Assembly (NCBI GenBank): GCA_965221125.1 | Contig: CBDCRW010000004.1 | Location: 96,001-160,000, forward strand | DNA length: 64,000 nucleotides | Origin: Alphaproteobacteria bacterium | Lineage (GTDB): Bacteria; Pseudomonadota; Alphaproteobacteria; UBA828 | Direction of reading: 5' to 3' | In this document: one piece after another, positions 54,041 to 61,388 of the stretch | Numbering within the stretch: the stretch's first letter is position 1 | Layout: the number at the start of each line of letters is the position of its first letter | The notes under the pieces: model-generated | What the model saw: only the letters and a program-made list of their open reading frames with translations | Database searches by the model: none | Told to the model about the DNA's origin: nothing | Translations under genes and position numbers: made by a program

Positions 54041-54299
54041 ACTTCTGTTGGTGACCAGACCCTTCGCGCGATGCCGCTCTGAGCGCAGCATCGGCGACCT
54101 CCCCGTGTGGAACATACAGAGGACAAATGCCCTTTCCATTCGGGTTATCGCGAAACTTTGAGGTCTTTCCCGGTCGTGCTGGGTAGGGCTACAGCACACT
54201 CCAGGGTGCTCTTGACCTCTGAGATCTCTAAAGTCCGATATTTTATATGCAAAAATGTTATAGTTGCTTAGGGGGCTTCTTCCTCTACATTTGTTCTCC

Positions 54300-54475
54300 A
54301 TGAGCATATCGCTGCACAACGACGGCATTGCCCCGAGCAGCCGCCAGGCGCTGATCGACAACATCAAGACGTACATCGCTCGCGAGCGGCTCTCGCGTCG
54401 TGCCTTCGGCGCGGCCGCACTCGGCGACGCGTCCTTCCTTGGCCGGCTCGGCCGGGGCTCGGACGTGCGCCTCGG
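54300..54475 (+). pseudogene. 5' part of a Cro-like/HTH_17 gene interrupted by the transposon
   Basis: MSISL...LIDNIKTYIARERLSRRAFGAAALGDASFLGRLGRGSDVRLG; rejoins in frame with 59102-59669. Confidence 0.85.
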
Positions 54476-54880
54476 TGTTGTTTCGCACGTTATTTGACGC
54501 CGAATCTCCCAGATTATTTGACGTGATCGCTGCCCTGATTTCCCAGATTGCTCGGTCTTTTCCGGATCGAAGCGTAGGAGCTCATGGTCTCTGCGGGCGG
54601 TCCGGGGTCGCTGTCTGATTGAGGTTTGGACTGGTGCTTGAGGAGAGCTGACGAGGTGTCGCGCGGCCGTCGGCGCGTCAAGCGGCTGCGCCGCTCCTGC
54701 GCTTCGCTTCGGCCCTTCGGGTGACTCGCCACCGTCCACACGACGAAGTGCTGCCATGGCCTGAAGCAAGCTTCCGGCCACGGACTGGCCGCTCACCTGA
54801 CGTAGTATCCCGGTGGAGGCGCAGCGCCTTCCGGACCGTTGGGGAAGGGTGGTTCCCGACGGCGGTTCCGGCTCGAACCC

Positions 54881-55921
54881 CTAGGCGTTGGCGGAACCGG
54901 GCTCCGGGAACCGCGGGGCCTGCGGCCGACTGCTGCCGTTGGCGGCGGCGGCCGCCGCCCGCTTGTCCGCTGCGCCTGCGACGACGCTGTAGCCGCCCTC
55001 GGCGTTGCGCGCGACGCGACCCTCCTGGACGAGCTTTTGCAAGATTACGCCGACGGTCTTGTGCCGGGTCGCGGCGCGTTCCCGGATCTGGCGTTGCGAG
55101 AGCGGCGCCCCGGCGTCGGCGAGCGCCTTGAGAACGCGGCATTCGGGTGTTTCGGGCTGAGGCGCCCCGCCGCCGGCCGTGGGCGGCTGGCGCAGCCGGA
55201 AGGAGGGCTCCTCTCCGTCTTCCTTGAGCTCGATCTCGATGTCGTCGAGACCGCGTGCGGCGCGATGCTCGACGGTCATGAGGGTCTGCCGGTCCCGGCG
55301 GCGCAGGTAGAGGTTCGAGTCCCCCCAGGCGTGCAGCTCACTGCTGCCCCGCAGGGCCTGCCCCGGCCTCGTGGCCCCGCTCTTGCGGGCGTGGTGGACG
55401 AGGAGGACGGCGGTCTCGAAGCGGCGTTGCAGGTCGCGCAGGAAGCCGAGGATCGGGGCGACGTCCGCAACCGTGTTCTCGTCCACGCCGTGCAGGCGGA
55501 CCAGGGGGTCGAGGACCACGAGGCGCGGTGCGATGCGCTCCACGGTCTGCTGCAGGCGGCGGCGGTCGTCGAGATGGTCGAGGCGCAGTGTGGGCACGTC
55601 GATGACGGCGATGTCGAGGGTCTCGAAGCGGGCGCCTGCGGCGCGGGCGATCCCCTGCAGGCGCTTGCGCACGAGGTGGCCGGCGTCTTCTGCGGCGAAC
55701 AGCAGGACCGGGCCAGGCCGGGCCGGGGCGAAGTGCCGCAGGCATGGGACGCCGGCGGCGACTGCGACCGCGAGGTCCAGCGCCAGGATGGACTTGCCGC
55801 ACTTCGGCTCGCCGCCGACGATGCCGACGGCCTGCTCGCCCCATAGCGTGTCCACCAGCCATTGCTGCTCGCGCGGCCGCTCCTCCAGCTCGATCGGGGC
55901 GCGGGTCGGGAAGCCGGTCAT
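54881..55921 (-). CDS. RecA/RepA-like AAA_25 ATPase (putative SF4 helicase) with C-terminal winged helix
   Basis: Walker A GEPKCGKS, AAED, Walker B VVLDP, LLVHH, LRGSS; C-terminal LSQRQIRERAATRHKTVGVILQKLVQEGRV; ATGA overlap with the upstream ATPase. Confidence 0.82.
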   Translation of the reverse strand: MTGFPTRAPIELEERPREQQWLVDTLWGEQAVGIVGGEPKCGKSILALDLAVAVAAGVPCLRHFAPARPGPVLLFAAEDAGHLVRKRLQGIARAAGARFETLDIAVIDVPTLRLDHLDDRRRLQQTVERIAPRLVVLDPLVRLHGVDENTVADVAPILGFLRDLQRRFETAVLLVHHARKSGATRPGQALRGSSELHAWGDSNLYLRRRDRQTLMTVEHRAARGLDDIEIELKEDGEEPSFRLRQPPTAGGGAPQPETPECRVLKALADAGAPLSQRQIRERAATRHKTVGVILQKLVQEGRVARNAEGGYSVVAGAADKRAAAAAANGSSRPQAPRFPEPGSANA

Positions 55922-56721
55922 GGCCGCAGTTCCTCGAGCGCGTGCTGCAGGTGGTCGGCACTGACGGTCCTCGCCTCGTCGAGAGCGGCGGCGGAGAGCG
56001 CGTAGTGGGCGATGCGGTTGATCTGGCGCGGCAGGCCGCGCGCGCCCTGGAACAGGGCCTCGACGGCGGGCTCTTCGAACAGCGGCAGTTCGCATCCCGC
56101 GAGCCTGAGGCGGTGCTTGATGTAAGCGTCGACCTCGTCGCGGTCGAGACCGCTCAGGTGGTGGCGGACGACGAGGCGCTGGCTGAGGGATTCGTGCATG
56201 GCCATGGCCAGGCGGCGCCTGAGCTCGGTCAGACCGACGAGGACGAGGCACAGGCGCTGCTCTGCATCCATGGCGAAGTTGGTGAGCAGGCGCAGGTCCT
56301 CAAGGACGTCGTTGCGCAGATGATGGGCCTCGTCGATGACGAGGACCGGCAGCTGCTTGGCCTCGGTGACGAGGCGGGAGATCTCGTTTCGGATGGCCTG
56401 ATAGGCCGAGGCGCGGGAGCGCTCGATGGGCAGGCCGATCTCCCACGCGATCGCCTTGTACATGTCGAGCACGTTGCCCGTGGTCAGCGAGACGTAGTGG
56501 ACCCGGTAGAGGCCTGGATGAAGCTGCGCGGTCAGATGCCGGCACACGGTGGTCTTGCCGGAGCCCACCTCGCCGGTGAGCAGGCCGATGCCGCGCAGGT
56601 CGATGAGGTGGCCGAGCCTGGCCTCGGCCTCGCGGCGCGCGTTGGACTCGAACAGCTCGTCGGTCTCTGCCGGGGTCTCGAAGGGCAGGCGGGTGAAGGC
56701 GAAGTGGCGCAGGTACATCAC
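55918..56721 (-). CDS. ExeA-family AAA+ ATPase (transposition helper, TnsC/MuB/IstB-like role inferred)
   Basis: YLRHFAFTRLPF, Walker A GEVGSGKT, Walker B VIDEAH, YIKHRL, GLPRQIN; start overlaps the transposase stop. Confidence 0.88.
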   Translation of the reverse strand: MMYLRHFAFTRLPFETPAETDELFESNARREAEARLGHLIDLRGIGLLTGEVGSGKTTVCRHLTAQLHPGLYRVHYVSLTTGNVLDMYKAIAWEIGLPIERSRASAYQAIRNEISRLVTEAKQLPVLVIDEAHHLRNDVLEDLRLLTNFAMDAEQRLCLVLVGLTELRRRLAMAMHESLSQRLVVRHHLSGLDRDEVDAYIKHRLRLAGCELPLFEEPAVEALFQGARGLPRQINRIAHYALSAAALDEARTVSADHLQHALEELRP

Positions 56722-58046
56722 TCGTCCTCCTTCTTGTCCTTGAGGTTGCGCATGGCCAGCGGCGAGGGCGGAGGCTCGGGCGCCGGATCTTCGGCCTCGA
56801 TCTCCCTGGCCGGGTAGGTGCGCCTGACGGCGGTATTGGCGTAGGCGTCGAGAGGGCTGGCCTTGCCGGCCGGCTTGCCGTCATGGACCACGTCGAGAGG
56901 GCGCGAGGGCGGCGCGGCCGGGTCGTAGCGCAGGATGACGTTCTGACCCACCAGGAGGGCGTCGACCTCGTAGACGCGGCCGTTCAGACTAACGGTGCGG
57001 TCCTTGTAGACACGGCGCCTGGCCTCGAAGAGGAACAGATCGTCGAGGTCCATGGTGGCGTCGGGATAGCGCACGCCGGCCGAGGCCAGCGCCCACTGCT
57101 CAAGCGGGGTGCGCCCCTCGTCGAGGCCACGATGCGGGCTGTTGTGATACTCCCCCTCGATCCAGGCCCAGAGGCTGCGGTTGAGCGCCTCCAGGCTGTC
57201 GACGTCATCGCCGAGGTGGCGGAGCCAGCCGGCCCGGAGGGTGCGGAAGAAGCGCTCGATCTTACCCTTTCCCGCTGGCTGGAACGCCCTTGCGTGAATC
57301 AACGCAACGCCGAGCCTGGCGCAGACCAGGGAGAGATGACGGGAGCGGTAGGCGCTTCCGTTGTCGACGTACAAGCGGGCCGGGAGGCCGCGCCGGATCA
57401 GCGCGTCCTTGAACACCGGCAGGAACGCCGCAGTGTTCTCCGCCATGGCGAAGGCGGCGAACGGGATGACGCGGGTGGCGTCGTCGATGAAGGCGATCAG
57501 GTAGGTCTTGCGCCGGGTTCGGCCGTGCCGGACCTTGGGTCCGTGCATGACGTCGCTCATCCACATCTCGCCGGCATGCCGGAAGGCGAAGCGGCGGCGA
57601 TCCGCCCCGTCGGGCGGCTTCTTGTCGAACAGGCCCTCGCGGCTGAAGAGGCGGTGCACGGTGGACGAGGCGAGCGGGTGGTCGATACCCTCCTCCTTGA
57701 CCTTCTGGATGATGGCGCGAACCGACAATGCGTCGTTCTCGGTCTTCAGCGCGATGAGGCGCTCGGCGACCTCGGGCGGCAGCCGCCGGGGCTTCCCCCG
57801 GTCGGTGCGGGGCTTGGGGTAGAGCGCGTCGAAGCCGCCGTAGCGGTAGTCCTTGATCCAGCGCCGCATGGTCTCGGCGGCGACCCGGGTCCTGGTGGTT
57901 CCGGGGATCGTGTAGGTCTTCTCGGCTTTGGCGCGCATCATCGCGCCGGCACCCGGTGCACCCACGGGCAGATGCACCAGATCGGCGATGACGTCGTATC
58001 GGAAGAGCGCGATCTGTTGGCGAAGGTCGTCGTCTGAGCTGTTCAT
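56718..58046 (-). CDS. DDE transposase/integrase (rve core with Mu-transposase C-terminal-like domain)
   Basis: N-terminal HTH (TMRRWIKDYRYGGFDALYPKPR); catalytic WMSD, VDNGSAY, KGKIERFF; C-terminal RRVYKDRTVSLNGRVYEV. Confidence 0.92.
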   Translation of the reverse strand: MNSSDDDLRQQIALFRYDVIADLVHLPVGAPGAGAMMRAKAEKTYTIPGTTRTRVAAETMRRWIKDYRYGGFDALYPKPRTDRGKPRRLPPEVAERLIALKTENDALSVRAIIQKVKEEGIDHPLASSTVHRLFSREGLFDKKPPDGADRRRFAFRHAGEMWMSDVMHGPKVRHGRTRRKTYLIAFIDDATRVIPFAAFAMAENTAAFLPVFKDALIRRGLPARLYVDNGSAYRSRHLSLVCARLGVALIHARAFQPAGKGKIERFFRTLRAGWLRHLGDDVDSLEALNRSLWAWIEGEYHNSPHRGLDEGRTPLEQWALASAGVRYPDATMDLDDLFLFEARRRVYKDRTVSLNGRVYEVDALLVGQNVILRYDPAAPPSRPLDVVHDGKPAGKASPLDAYANTAVRRTYPAREIEAEDPAPEPPPSPLAMRNLKDKKEDE

Positions 58047-58091
58047 GGTGCGATCCTCGTTCAGGGACTCCCTGGCCCCGGGATCGTCACG

Positions 58092-58727
58092 CTACGAACT
58101 CTCCGGCGGCGGGTCCGGCCCCGCCCGTTGTTGGAACTGCGGTTTGCGATTCCCCACGTCGATGCCGTGGGGTTGGAAGCCCAGAGGCGCGGGTAGCGTC
58201 CGGAGCTGCCCGGCGACCAGGCCGCGCAGTTCCATCAACGCGCTGTCGCTCTTCAGACGCTCGCGCACCGCGCTCATGGTGGGCGCGCAGCCCGCGAGCA
58301 GGTCGGGGATCAGGCCGATGACGCGCACAAGCGCGTCGTGCACAAGCTTCAGCCTGCGGCGGATCCAACGCACGGCGCCGGGAAGCTCGATGGCGTCCTC
58401 GTCCTCGGGGCAGCGCACCTCGTCCGCTGCCTCCTCCAGGCTGCCGGCCTCCTCCGCCACGACAACAACCGCTTCCAGCGCATCGAGCGTGCCCGGCAGC
58501 CGCGCCGCCAGACAGTCGGCCAGCAGGCCGATGGTCGTATGGCTCTCACGGCAATACCAGCGAGGAACCCTTGCGCCGGGCGGGGTCTTCCGCTCGTAGG
58601 TGCCGTGGCTTGCCACAGAACATCCGCCGTGCGGGTGATTCGGGCAGCGCTCAAGCCTTGCGTCGCGCCACGCCTCGGTCTTAACGTATTCCTCGCTGGT
58701 GAGCCCCGTTTCGTAGCGAAGCTGCAC
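58092..58727 (-). CDS. Transposon-encoded hypothetical protein with putative Zn-ribbon (DUF6431-like)
   Basis: CPNHPHGGC...HGTYERK...RWYCRESHTT..LLADCL pattern followed by a helical region; first gene of the transposon operon. Confidence 0.7.
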   Translation of the reverse strand: MQLRYETGLTSEEYVKTEAWRDARLERCPNHPHGGCSVASHGTYERKTPPGARVPRWYCRESHTTIGLLADCLAARLPGTLDALEAVVVVAEEAGSLEEAADEVRCPEDEDAIELPGAVRWIRRRLKLVHDALVRVIGLIPDLLAGCAPTMSAVRERLKSDSALMELRGLVAGQLRTLPAPLGFQPHGIDVGNRKPQFQQRAGPDPPPESS

Positions 58728-59101
58728 CGGCCCTGGCCCGGCGGGAGTTCCGTCCCCCGGGCCTCTCTTTGTCGTTCAGTGAGAGGCCAAGATTACGGAC
58801 GCTCCCCGCCGCCGCCAAGCTGTGGAGCCGTGGACGCGTCCTGCGGACCGATCGGCGTCCTGCGGACCGTGTGGACAGCCCGTGGACAAGCTGGCGCTTG
58901 CCCACCGCCTGACCACACTCGCCGATCTCGCGCCCACCGCTCCACAGCTTCAACAGCAATGAGGATTCTGCTGAGGATCAAAAAAATGCCGCAGGCAGCG
59001 TCCTTCCCGCACTCGGCCACCATCCCGGGAAATCCACCAACCAATCAAAGTGAGAAAAAAACCCGTGCTTCTATCCGGCTAGACCGGAAAACAACACTCG
59101 G

Positions 59102-59669
59102 CACTGCGGACAAGGTGCTGGCCTACATGAACCTGGAGCCCATCGGCCCCCGCTTCCTGCAGGAGGTCGAGGCCTTCCTCGAGGTGACCGGCATAAAGCC
59201 GCACGTCCTGGGCGAACAGGCGCTGGGAGATCCCAGCTTCGTGCTCCGGCTGGAGCAGGGAAGATCCCCGATGCTCGGCACAGTCGACAAGGTGGGTGCG
59301 TGGATGGCGGACAACGCGAGCGCGGCGGAGCTCGAGGCGGTGCGGGCCGCAGTCGAGGACGCCTCGCCCGCCGTTCCGTTCGATGCGGCAGGACGGGAAG
59401 AGACGGAGGAGGAGGAGACTCACTACATGAGCACGCGTCAAGTGGCGGCGTACCTGGGACTGAGCCCACGCACACTGGAGAACTACCGGTGTCGCGGTGG
59501 GGGCCCGCCTTTCCACGTCTTCGGCGGCGCGGTGCGCTATCTGCTGTCCGACGTGGTGAACTGGGCGTCGAAGCGGCGCAGGCGTTCGACCTCCGACGAC
59601 GGGGTGCGGAGCGCGATCCCGAAAGACAGAGGGCACGCTTTAGATGGGGCTACCTCGTTTTCCGATTGA
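59102..59669 (+). pseudogene. 3' part of the interrupted Cro-like x2 + HTH_17 gene
   Basis: TADKVLAYM...FLQEVEAFLEVTG...LGDPSFVLRLEQGRSPMLGTVDKV...YMSTRQVAAYLGLSPRTLENYRCRGGGPPF. Confidence 0.85.
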
Positions 59670-59677
59670 CCACGCCG

Positions 59678-60409
59678 TCAGACGGTGTCGGCCAATCTTC
59701 GCCCGAGCCTCGCCTTCGCCCACACCTCGAGATCGAAGCGCGCGTACAACACTCGACGCCCGAACTTGTGGAACCCAGGTCCCTCGCCGGTGACCCGGTA
59801 GCTCTCGAGCGTTTTGGACGAGAGCCCGACGACGGTCGCAGCCTCGCGCGGGGTGAGAAAGGTCCGCTCATCGATCTTCGGGATCTGCTCGTCGTCGTCG
59901 GTCCATGGTGGGAACGCTGCGCCAAGCCCGTAGGGCGGGACCGTGACATCGCTTGCGAGCAGCCACGCGATACCGGTGCGTTGGAAATCGTCCGCAGCGG
60001 TGTGCATCCAGAACCTCACCCGCGCAACTCTGTCGAGCGTCGGCGATGCTCCGCTTCGGAGCTCCCGCACGAACGAGGATTTTCCGACCGCCCTGGTCCC
60101 GACCAGGGTCGGGCTGGTCCTGGTGACGATGAGGAACGCCTCGACCTCCCGCCGGAACCTCGGACCGATGGGGGCGATGTCCATGAAGCGGAGCACCCGG
60201 TCGACAGTGTCGAGACCCGGCGAAGCACCGTCATTCAGGTCCGGGACGAACTCGGGATCATCGAGCGCGAGCTCGCCGAGCCTCCTGTCGCTCATCTTGG
60301 AACGCTTGAGATACTCCGAGATGGCGTCCCGAAACGCGGCGTCGATCACGGTCCTCTGCCCGGTCTCCAGCGATGGACCGGGCCGGCGCCGGCCCGAACG
60401 CACGGGCAT
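59678..60409 (-). CDS. Tandem Cro-like HTH domains fused to an HTH_17 (AlpA/Xis-like) domain
   Basis: Two internal repeats (LALDDPEFVPDLNDGASPGLDTVDRV and AVGKSSFVRELRSGASPTLDRVARV) and C-terminal FLTPREAATVVGLSSKTLESYRVTGEGPGF; start codon uncertain. Confidence 0.75.
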   Translation of the reverse strand: MPVRSGRRRPGPSLETGQRTVIDAAFRDAISEYLKRSKMSDRRLGELALDDPEFVPDLNDGASPGLDTVDRVLRFMDIAPIGPRFRREVEAFLIVTRTSPTLVGTRAVGKSSFVRELRSGASPTLDRVARVRFWMHTAADDFQRTGIAWLLASDVTVPPYGLGAAFPPWTDDDEQIPKIDERTFLTPREAATVVGLSSKTLESYRVTGEGPGFHKFGRRVLYARFDLEVWAKARLGRRLADTV

Positions 60410-60473
60410 TCGGAATTCATGCGACACCGTCAGCTGTCCCGGCGGCACCGATCCTGACACGACATCGCCCCGA

Positions 60474-60728
60474 TCAGAGCGCGTCCGGCTGGCCGGTATG
60501 GAACTGGCCGGTGTGGTGATAGCGTTGCCCGGCCGCCCAATCGGCGAGGTCGGCCAGCGCGTAGACGATGGAAGTGCCGAACATGTAATAGGCGGGCCCA
60601 CCCCCACGTATCCGGTAGCGGCGGAGGGACTCTGTGCTCACGCGCAGGATGGCGGCCGCCTCGCGGGGTTTCACGAACTCCGGCAGGATGCCGTCATGCA
60701 CGGCCTGAGTCTCGTCCCGAGTCTCCAT
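60474..60728 (-). CDS. Small HTH_17 / excisionase-like DNA-binding protein
   Basis: FVKPREAAAILRVSTESLRRYRIRGGGPAY...VYALADLADW. Confidence 0.72.
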   Translation of the reverse strand: METRDETQAVHDGILPEFVKPREAAAILRVSTESLRRYRIRGGGPAYYMFGTSIVYALADLADWAAGQRYHHTGQFHTGQPDAL

Positions 60729-61388
60729 CTTCGTCACCGCCGTCGCACCGAAACGGGGACGGGGACCGGGGATGTCGAAGCGTGCCGCCGGTCGACGACC
60801 GGGCCCGATCGCCCCTCCGGCGGTGTCGAGCGGTGGAGCCGCCCTGGTTCGAACCGGACGCTCACGATCATCATCGGCCACGTTCCTCCCCAACTGCCGA
60901 GCGTGCAGTCCGCCCCGCCGGGCGACGACGCCAAACGGCTCCTGGCCACGGCCCGTCTGTCGGTCGCTCGGTCGCCCTCTGACAGTCTCGGTTAGCAGCC
61001 CGCTGCCGGAAATGGAAATGCCTATTGAAGCCAAATGCATGCCACTGCCGTATGCAGGAATGCGAGCAGGGCAGAGCGATCACGGGGTCTGTCTGATCGA
61101 CCCCGCTCCGGGCAGGTTATCGGATATCTCGTGAGATTCTCACGGATGGGACCGCCTCGGCGGCAGCCGGTGCCCCGCGGCCGGTCGCGCTCGGCCGGGA
61201 GCGGGCTGCGGCATGGTGGTGCCACGAGTCCCCTACGATTATGTGAGACTCGATGTCGCGTTGACGACGAGACCACCGGAGGTTGTGTGAGCGACTGGAA
61301 CAATGTGGGACACCCTTCCGGAACTGGGACGGTTGGCCGTCATCGCCAGCTGGTTTTCTACGGTCACCTTTGGAAAGAAGTCGTGTGT

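Follow-up and report, generated by a model that had tools for sequence, protein, structure and literature searches.

A multicopy DDE transposon of an alphaproteobacterial genome with a RepA-like ATPase gene in an exchangeable cassette

For replicative DDE transposons such as Mu, Tn3 and TnsA-less Tn7-like elements, the prevailing view is that host replication-restart proteins take over the strand-transfer forks, and Mu replication relies on the host PriA primosome. IS481 elements are single-gene insertion sequences (ISs) of ∼1 kb, and the host-independent RepA helicase and RepB' primase underlie the broad host range of IncQ plasmids. According to one review, TGT/ACA tips are common to Tn7-like and IS481-family elements, and TnsA-less Tn7-like members make cointegrates (PMC11406308). 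Here we describe a 4,621-bp transposon at 54476–59096 of a 64,000-nt stretch of an alphaproteobacterial genome (the window; assembly GCA_965221125.1, contig CBDCRW010000004.1, positions 96,001–160,000). The element is complete and flanked by target duplications in the window sequence, its four genes are co-directional on the minus strand, and sequence comparison shows that the last of them, encoding a RepA-like AAA_25 protein, belongs to a cassette exchanged with other transposons. Its features are listed below, type 1 denoting window-like elements and type 2 elements whose upstream genes are only distantly similar.

54471–54475, no strand: target-site duplication copy 1, CTCGG (same letters as 59097–59101)
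54476–54560, minus strand: gene-distal end (right end in gene orientation), tip and about three ∼22-bp subterminal units (sequence; conservation in relatives)
54649–54799, minus strand: ∼152-nt structured non-coding element, ∼85 nt downstream of the AAA_25 stop (nhmmer and covariation)
54655–55927, minus strand: exchangeable 1.27-kb cassette of AAA_25 gene and structured element (the only type-1/type-2 nucleotide similarity)
54881–55921, minus strand: RepA-like P-loop ATPase of the AAA_25 family with a winged helix at its C-terminus, a putative hexameric helicase of 346 amino acids (Pfam, PDB profile)
55918–56721, minus strand: AAA_22 ATPase, 267 amino acids (Pfam, NCBIfam, PDB profile)
56718–58046, minus strand: DDE transposase with HTH_32, rve and Mu-transpos_C domains, 442 amino acids (Pfam, NCBIfam, PDB profile)
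58092–58727, minus strand: Zn-ribbon protein, divergent DUF6431 member, 211 amino acids (hhalign, ESM Atlas)
59000–59096, minus strand: gene-proximal end (left end in gene orientation), tip and subterminal repeat units (sequence; alignment of relatives)
59097–59101, no strand: target-site duplication copy 2, CTCGG (same letters as 54471–54475)

With Tn5053/Tn402 and Tn7-like transposons (TniA/TnsB, TniB/TnsC, TniQ) the element has in common a DDE enzyme with an AAA+ partner and a small third protein containing a Zn-ribbon, 8-bp TGT..ACA tips, several subterminal repeats per end (binding predicted), 5-bp duplications and TnsB as the best PDB match. It differs in having no TniQ match, a TniB score below the Pfam cut-off, no TnsA, no resolvase (serine resolvase TniR in Tn5053) and no sign of site-specific targeting, and in carrying the helicase cassette. 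Mu (MuA/MuB) is alike in the Mu-transpos_C domain, in MuB as the best PDB match (E 1e-3) and in 5-bp duplications, and the high copy number is consistent with replicative spread, but the window element has no phage genes and has a helicase-like protein of its own. IS481 is alike in supplying the best NCBIfam model and in TGT..ACA tips and short duplications, whereas the window element scores below the 224 cut-off and has four genes, 4,621 bp and an AAA+ partner. To RSF1010 (IncQ; RepA helicase, RepB' primase and single-strand initiation (ssi) hairpins) the likeness lies in the AAA_25 protein, which matches RepA with its catalytic motifs, in a Toprim primase-like gene added by sister elements, and in a structured element beside the helicase gene that may be likened to the ssi hairpins; however, this module sits in a DDE transposon rather than a plasmid, and no RepC-type initiator or iterons were identified in it.

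The nearest kin are unnamed DUF6431-DDE-ATPase elements, known from automatic annotation only. Those on Cupriavidus, Geobacillus and Streptomyces plasmids have the same families and gene order, with a DDE transposase 38–40% identical and a Zn-ribbon protein related at the profile level; unlike the window element, they have neither an AAA_25 nor a Toprim gene. Judged by its sequence, the element probably works like Mu, Tn5053 or TnsA-less Tn7-like transposons, yet it falls outside the IS481, Tn7-like and Tn5053 groups as these are defined. We found no published description of a DDE transposon with an AAA_25, RepA-like or Toprim gene (an ISfinder or TnCentral entry under another name is possible), and none of the DUF6431-DDE-ATPase family; papers naming DUF6431 seem unrelated by title and abstract.

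The element is an autonomous, currently active DDE transposon. Its own genome (4.58 Mb, 7 contigs, 69% G+C) holds 20 copies, 17 of them intact at 100% identity over 4,621 bp and three split by a 1.45-kb IS. Comparison of the flanks gave an exact 5-bp direct duplication at 15/20 copies, a 4-bp match shifted by one base at two and a match at 4/5 positions at one. Two inverted copies ∼45 kb apart (C4:671960-676580 and C4:716887-721507) hold swapped duplication halves (GAGGG and CCCCG), which points to a ∼45-kb chromosomal inversion between them. The element seems to choose its targets almost at random, with a weak preference for G at duplication positions 4 and 5 (13/20 each) and no sign of site-specific targeting at the 20 sites. 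In the sequencing run that matches the element best, element unitigs had a word depth of 388–402 against 19 and 23 for flanking contigs, a ∼17–21-fold ratio that matches the 20 chromosomal copies, so that these rough contig depths give no visible episomal excess. Among the assembled contigs listed for four runs there was no end-to-end joint and none that bridged the empty site, which is uninformative either way because contigs drop rare forms.

Multiplication is not confined to this genome: four others have 65, 24, ∼20 and 6 AAA_22-linked copies of relatives, and the element makes up ∼2% of its own genome and ∼5% of one relative's (65 copies of ∼4.4 kb in 5.8 Mb). Of 11 type-1 loci elsewhere, nine show 4–6-bp duplications (exactly 5 bp at five), as do 13/14 type-2 copies in one genome (exactly 5 bp at seven). 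The original prediction, made from the window's letters alone, that this is a complete and autonomous transposon of scarcely described type, pairing a DDE enzyme with an AAA+ protein and having TG..CA ends and 5-bp duplications, is supported.

The 1.45-kb IS that splits three copies belongs to the IS256 family (Transposase_mut, 407 bits) and occurs in 14 identical copies in the same genome; the three inside the element (C6:194952-196404, C5:758404-759851 and C7:276233-277685; loci L105–L107) are flanked by ∼8-bp duplications of element sequence.

The tips form an 8-bp terminal inverted repeat, TGTTGTTT at 54476–54483 and AAACAACA at 59089–59096. At the gene-distal end, TTATTTGACG occurs at 54490 and 54514 and TCCCAGATT at 54507 and 54541, and the ∼22-bp units there are kept in six other type-1 elements; type-2 elements show a TTATTTGAYG pair at equal spacing. 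Similar units, about three per end, are also found at the gene-proximal end, the first ∼95 nt of which are kept across seven type-1 elements. These units are probably transposase-binding sites, as had been proposed for the repeats at 54490–54550. The shared occurrence in type 2 had raised the idea that the TTATTTGACG repeats are sites for the AAA_25 winged helix; we dropped it for transposase binding, the simpler reading given the similar units at the other end and the homology of type-1 and type-2 transposases. The ends, the CTCGG duplication, both motifs and the four co-directional genes had all been read correctly from the sequence beforehand.

58822–58992, no strand: ∼170-bp insert within the gene-proximal end, lineage-specific (of seven aligned type-1 elements, just the window copy and L013 have it)

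Associated with this insert are 22-nt inverted arms (58817–58838 and 58929–58950) and six G(T/C)GGAC motifs (GTGGAC/GCGGAC). Its restriction to the window and L013 indicates that it is not core, and the GTGGAC-rich palindrome at 58817–58950 was rejected as a set of iterons because the insert is missing from 5/7 type-1 relatives.

The Zn-ribbon gene is followed by the DDE gene after a 45-nt gap, and the last three genes are coupled by 4-nt overlaps, as originally described: GTGA at 56718–56721 between the DDE stop and the AAA_22 start (just 1 nt if the start is the ATG one codon in) and ATGA at 55918–55921 between the AAA_22 stop and the AAA_25 start. The transposase scores 31.6 bits for Mu-transpos_C (Pfam cut-off 21.7); its best NCBIfam model is IS481 (NF033577; 201.9 bits, E 1.4e-59), below the curated cut-off of 224, and its closest PDB match in a profile search is TnsB (E 5e-7). 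The DDE triad D165, D228 and E264 is invariant in eight aligned sequences including type-2 and plasmid relatives, and the ratio of nonsynonymous to synonymous divergence (dN/dS) is 0.17–0.29.

The ATPase matches AAA_22 at 95 bits, with TniB at 20.8 bits, under the 22.4 cut-off, and the ExeA-like NCBIfam model pepcterm_ATPase at 168.6 bits, under 324.5. Its closest PDB match is MuB (E 1e-3, residues 43–163 only), with no TnsC among the PDB matches, and by its families it is probably a target-capture or regulatory partner of the transposase. The Zn-ribbon protein has no direct Pfam match, including DUF6431 (PF20020) or TniQ, even at E 10. Aligned with three DUF6431 proteins of plasmid relatives, it gave an hhalign probability of 92.8% (E 4e-7) over a C..C..HG.Y.RK..R.YC..T..L core, the gene position being the same, and 28 of 30 ESM Atlas matches fall in clusters with DUF6431 in 29–57% of members. 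Its family profile found just a chance match in the PDB (E 0.78) and no TniQ or TnsD, and a structure model built from a 17-sequence alignment (predicted local distance difference test score, pLDDT, 51.6) was too poor for a fold search. The TniQ-like part in target selection that had been suggested for this protein gains no support from these searches or from the nearly random insertion sites. The four genes fill 54881–58727, and the element has no further open reading frame with a family match, hence no TnsA-like nuclease and, as the original prediction had it, no resolvase.

The AAA_25 domain scores 127 bits against a cut-off of 27, whereas MarR_2 (24.8 bits) remains below its own. Searched against the PDB, a 17-sequence AAA_25 profile matched RSF1010 RepA alone (1g8y, E 1.8e-12), in agreement with the RepA/SF4-like assignment made from the sequence. 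Walker A GKS, AED, the Walker B D, HHA.K and RGSS align to 1g8y and are invariant in the 17 homologues. Residues 21–210 are 36% identical to a phage protein named 'DNA primase/helicase' in 6/10 of the Clostridium phage records listed, and related AAA_25 clusters include viral members; PLSDB plasmids gave no match to the protein even at E 1e-5. An AlphaFold model from 17 sequences reached a pLDDT of 47.6, with only the winged helix (residues ∼259–315) confident (74–88). The gene is under purifying selection, with dN/dS of 0.25–0.30 in seven of eight comparisons and 0.42 in one. In one metagenomic protein (P0004, 597 amino acids) AAA_22 and AAA_25 share a single chain, perhaps because the overlapping genes have fused, whether in nature or as an artefact.

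Searching species-representative genomes with the AAA_25 alignment yielded 80 loci, all in metagenome-assembled genomes (MAGs) labelled mostly Alphaproteobacteria, but also Dehalococcoidia, Chloroflexota, Acidobacteria, Acidimicrobiales, Gemmatimonadota and Poribacteria. A DDE gene, an AAA_22 gene or both lie directly upstream at 75/80; the other five are two contig-end cuts and three 5'-truncated copies. Twenty loci are of type 1, with Zn-ribbon, DDE and AAA_22 proteins 72–99%, 78–98% and 81–99% identical to those of the window. The other 60 are of type 2: their AAA_25 proteins are 64–80% identical to the window's, and the upstream genes, detected at 55/60, only 25–32% (DDE) and 25–30% (AAA_22). 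Annotated type-2 representatives also have another first gene (CxxC..CxxC plus HTH_23) and other tips, TGAGCG..CGCTCA. Among 300 further genomes, sampled evenly from the class, one had a transposase match at E ≤ 1e-40 and two an AAA_25 match at E ≤ 1e-15, one of the latter in DDE context on a short contig carrying both genes (DDE 36%, AAA_25 49% identical). The samples searched yielded hardly any member of this AAA_25 clade away from these transposons.

The AAA_25 position is a variable slot, seen with AAA_25 alone, Toprim alone or both. A 4,007-bp sister of type 1 with tips TGTTGAAC..AACCAACA (DDE 53%, AAA_22 58% identical to the window) has a DUF3991 plus Toprim_2 gene in this slot, and in two type-2 lineages AAA_25 is followed by a DUF3991/Toprim gene. 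Copies are distributed over the other genomes as follows.

Genome G301: 4 type-1 copies and 17 Toprim-type copies
Genome G302: 30 type-1 and 35 type-2 copies, all with AAA_25
Genome G303: 24 type-2 copies with AAA_25
Genome G304: ∼20 copies with AAA_25 and Toprim
Genome G305: 6 copies with AAA_25 and Toprim

A Toprim match adjoins all 17 Toprim-type copies, near full length at 15 and at residues 8–116 only at two. Their duplications, viewed at six copies, are unclear, one being exact under one boundary choice only and two showing partial (4-base) matches. In the same genome one Toprim-type sister lies within the 3' end of an AAA_25 gene of type 1 that is truncated at about residue 276 (L088:6001-11079). 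A second place, G301:C8:183641-184919, has the same truncated AAA_25 arrangement, and this may be a nested insertion copied later. Seven type-2 copies lie within ∼115 kb of one chromosome (G303 C1:1984109-2099572), which suggests local hopping.

Transposases 35–40% identical to the window's occur on 79 plasmid records, with no Staphylococcus record among the 30 listed of the 79 matches, a point that bears on a possible relation to Tn552 (p480, p271 and resolvase). Of the three plasmid relatives inspected, those of Cupriavidus and Streptomyces have DUF6431, DDE and ATPase genes in that order in their gene tables, and the Geobacillus region has a DUF6431-type gene and a transposase only, in an incomplete table. 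A nucleotide search of plasmids with the whole element returned two trivial short matches only.

Nucleotide similarity between types 1 and 2 is 74–80% and confined to the cassette, the remainder not aligning; it sets in almost exactly at the AAA_25 start codon, give or take a few bases, and extends through the structured element to ∼180 bp from the tip. Synonymous divergence (dS) of AAA_25 between the window and four type-2 copies is 0.50–0.68, compared with 0.30–0.51 for four type-1 copies. With dS similar across and within types and the DDE transposases at 25–29% identity, the cassette must have moved between lineages recently relative to their divergence, and AAA_25 is not simply a slowly evolving gene. 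In lineages with both AAA_25 and Toprim, the sequence ceases to resemble plain type-2 elements shortly before AAA_25 ends, and the Toprim gene takes the place of the structured element. On this evidence the AAA_25 gene and the structured element behave as a cassette traded between transposon lineages. The original prediction that all four genes are probably core machinery therefore has to be given up, by the refuting condition that had been set for it: homologous elements without AAA_25 exist, namely the sister with 17 Toprim-type copies and the inspected plasmid relatives.

The structured element folds as a 5' hairpin followed by an 18-bp long-range helix around two small hairpins. Among the fetched sequences nhmmer located it at 54 places, representing 21 distinct sequences. 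In a 19-sequence alignment 96.5% of cells are paired and eight pairs carry compensatory changes (24 cells); 0/500 shuffles reached any of five measures, and sliding the partner by 1–3 columns left 26–47% paired. The gene-sense strand is favoured, since 32 G-U cells would be A-C mismatches on the opposite strand. Rfam (E ≤ 1) and ARAGORN returned nothing relevant for the element, and the 152-nt sequence may represent a novel signal, either a structured RNA or single-stranded DNA, without a counterpart in Rfam.

In the window's own genome a covariance model hit the 20 copies of the transposon and nothing else; in G301 it picked out three occurrences, each following a type-1 AAA_25 gene, but did not match any of the 17 Toprim-type copies, in G305 it had no match, and in G304 a single solo copy (L104:6771-6933, G304:C12:125770-125932). 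Elements that have Toprim thus lack the structured element. The solo copy follows an unrelated DDE_Tnp_1 transposase gene at a distance of ∼260 nt, with no AAA_25, DDE(rve), AAA_22 or Toprim gene within 6 kb, and its long helix is of different but fully complementary sequence, which further supports the structure. Most of the structured element is missing from the type-1 relative L013. Candidate roles for the structured element are those of a signal for single-strand initiation or loading and of an RNA cofactor, but it may be no more than a structure of the 3' untranslated region; to see in it an ssi-like site is speculation.

A mechanism may be outlined from these parts. The three-gene core of DUF6431-type Zn-ribbon, IS481/Mu-like DDE and AAA_22 protein distantly like MuB/TniB is common to a wide, scarcely described family. 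The transposase would bind the repeated ∼22-bp units at both ends, nick the TG..CA tips and join these to target DNA that the ATPase captures and that is cut with a 5-bp stagger, giving a Mu-type strand-transfer fork that needs replication (copy-in). We infer such a fork from the lack of a TnsA-like second nuclease and of a resolvase; any cointegrates would, without a resolvase, be separated by host recombination. The cassette, or the Toprim gene replacing or joining it, would then initiate the replication of this strand-transfer intermediate from a position inside the element, a step on which we consider the evidence evenly balanced. It would stand in for the host PriA/DnaC/DnaB/DnaG hand-off, in parallel with the broad host range that IncQ plasmids gain from their own helicase and primase. 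For the AAA_25 protein we favour a role of the replication type, since sister elements place a DUF3991/Toprim gene in or next to the same slot; the earlier suggestion that the helicase–winged-helix protein replicates an intermediate gains from these slot-mates, while the role itself is still conjectural. More tentatively, we propose a class of DDE transposons with their own replication-initiation module (a self-loading RepA-type helicase, an optional Toprim primase and possibly a structured signal), a plug-in cassette traded between unrelated lineages that would free them from the host primosome.

Several observations weigh against this proposal. The cassette is dispensable for transposition as such, because Toprim-type elements reach 17 copies with no AAA_25 match beside any of them, and the three inspected plasmid relatives show neither an AAA_25 nor a Toprim gene. 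The solo copy without AAA_25 and the loss in L013 weaken a strict functional tie between helicase and structured element. With the AAA_25 model so poor, the helicase fold is read from sequence. The ∼45-kb inversion fits either homologous recombination or intramolecular replicative transposition, both of which predict the swapped duplications, and so does not discriminate. Replicative transposition is argued here from gene content rather than from experiments or reads, and IS481/IS3-type enzymes are usually thought to use a copy-out-paste-in route via a circle.

The last point leads to an alternative that we regard as unlikely, in which the cassette maintains an excised circle: a RepA-like initiator and helicase would act on the structured element as an origin, amplifying the circle or completing copy-out before AAA_22-assisted paste-in. 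IS481 as the best-scoring transposase family suits it, as do the resemblance of a winged helix fused to a RepA-type ATPase beside a conserved structured element to a minimal replicon and the plasmid-like set formed by helicase and Toprim together. However, the ∼17–21-fold depth, rough as it is, is accounted for by the chromosomal copies, and the Mu-transpos_C domain and MuB/TniB-like partner point to direct strand transfer.

It is quite improbable that the AAA_25–winged-helix protein is instead a regulator or a target or immunity factor, an ATP-dependent DNA-binding switch and not a replication protein. RecA-fold AAA_25 proteins are not all helicases, the protein has a confidently modelled DNA-binding winged helix (pLDDT 74–88, residues ∼259–315), and the ATGA overlap couples AAA_25 translationally to the AAA_22 gene; but one cassette serves two transposase/ATPase sets only 25–32% identical, which makes specific contacts with them unlikely, its slot-mates are Toprim primase-like genes, and the RepA catalytic motifs are retained. 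That the cassette is cargo unrelated to transposition (an integrative-element or satellite remnant, or a defence or anti-defence gene) kept for some other benefit is very unlikely: relatives do transpose without it and related AAA_25 clusters have viral members, but its position and orientation are constant and coupled to the operon, purifying selection acts on it (dN/dS 0.25–0.30), and its clade is hardly met elsewhere in the samples searched.

If the proposed replication module is real, it could explain how these elements reach 20–65 copies in a genome and why they occur in MAGs that bear the labels of at least six phyla, and the family would be a natural example of a host-independent DDE transposon. 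Fork hand-off outside Escherichia coli is largely an open question, which a family with a helicase/primase-like slot would make testable. It is also relevant to broad-host-range insertion tools derived from TnsA-less CRISPR-associated transposon (CAST) systems, which suffer from cointegrates. At ∼2% and ∼5% of genome content, the element matters in any case for assembly and annotation of these MAGs.

The element, or most of its sampled words, was present in 16 sequencing runs at no less than half of the words; 20 matching runs come from eight studies labelled sponge or marine metagenomes among others, and the best-matching run may be the source sample. Contigs of sponge and coral metatranscriptome libraries cover parts of the element or close relatives (13/30 bins in X18 and 28/30 in X17), which is no proof of transcription, as they carry no strand or end information.

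The window copy splits a host HTH_17 gene, with halves at about 54264–54475 and 59097–59669. This excisionase-type helix-turn-helix gene belongs to a small paralogue cluster with 59678–60607 and 60474–61040 (both minus strand), whose members share repeated 'LDRV..FM...PIGPRF..EVEAFL' modules.

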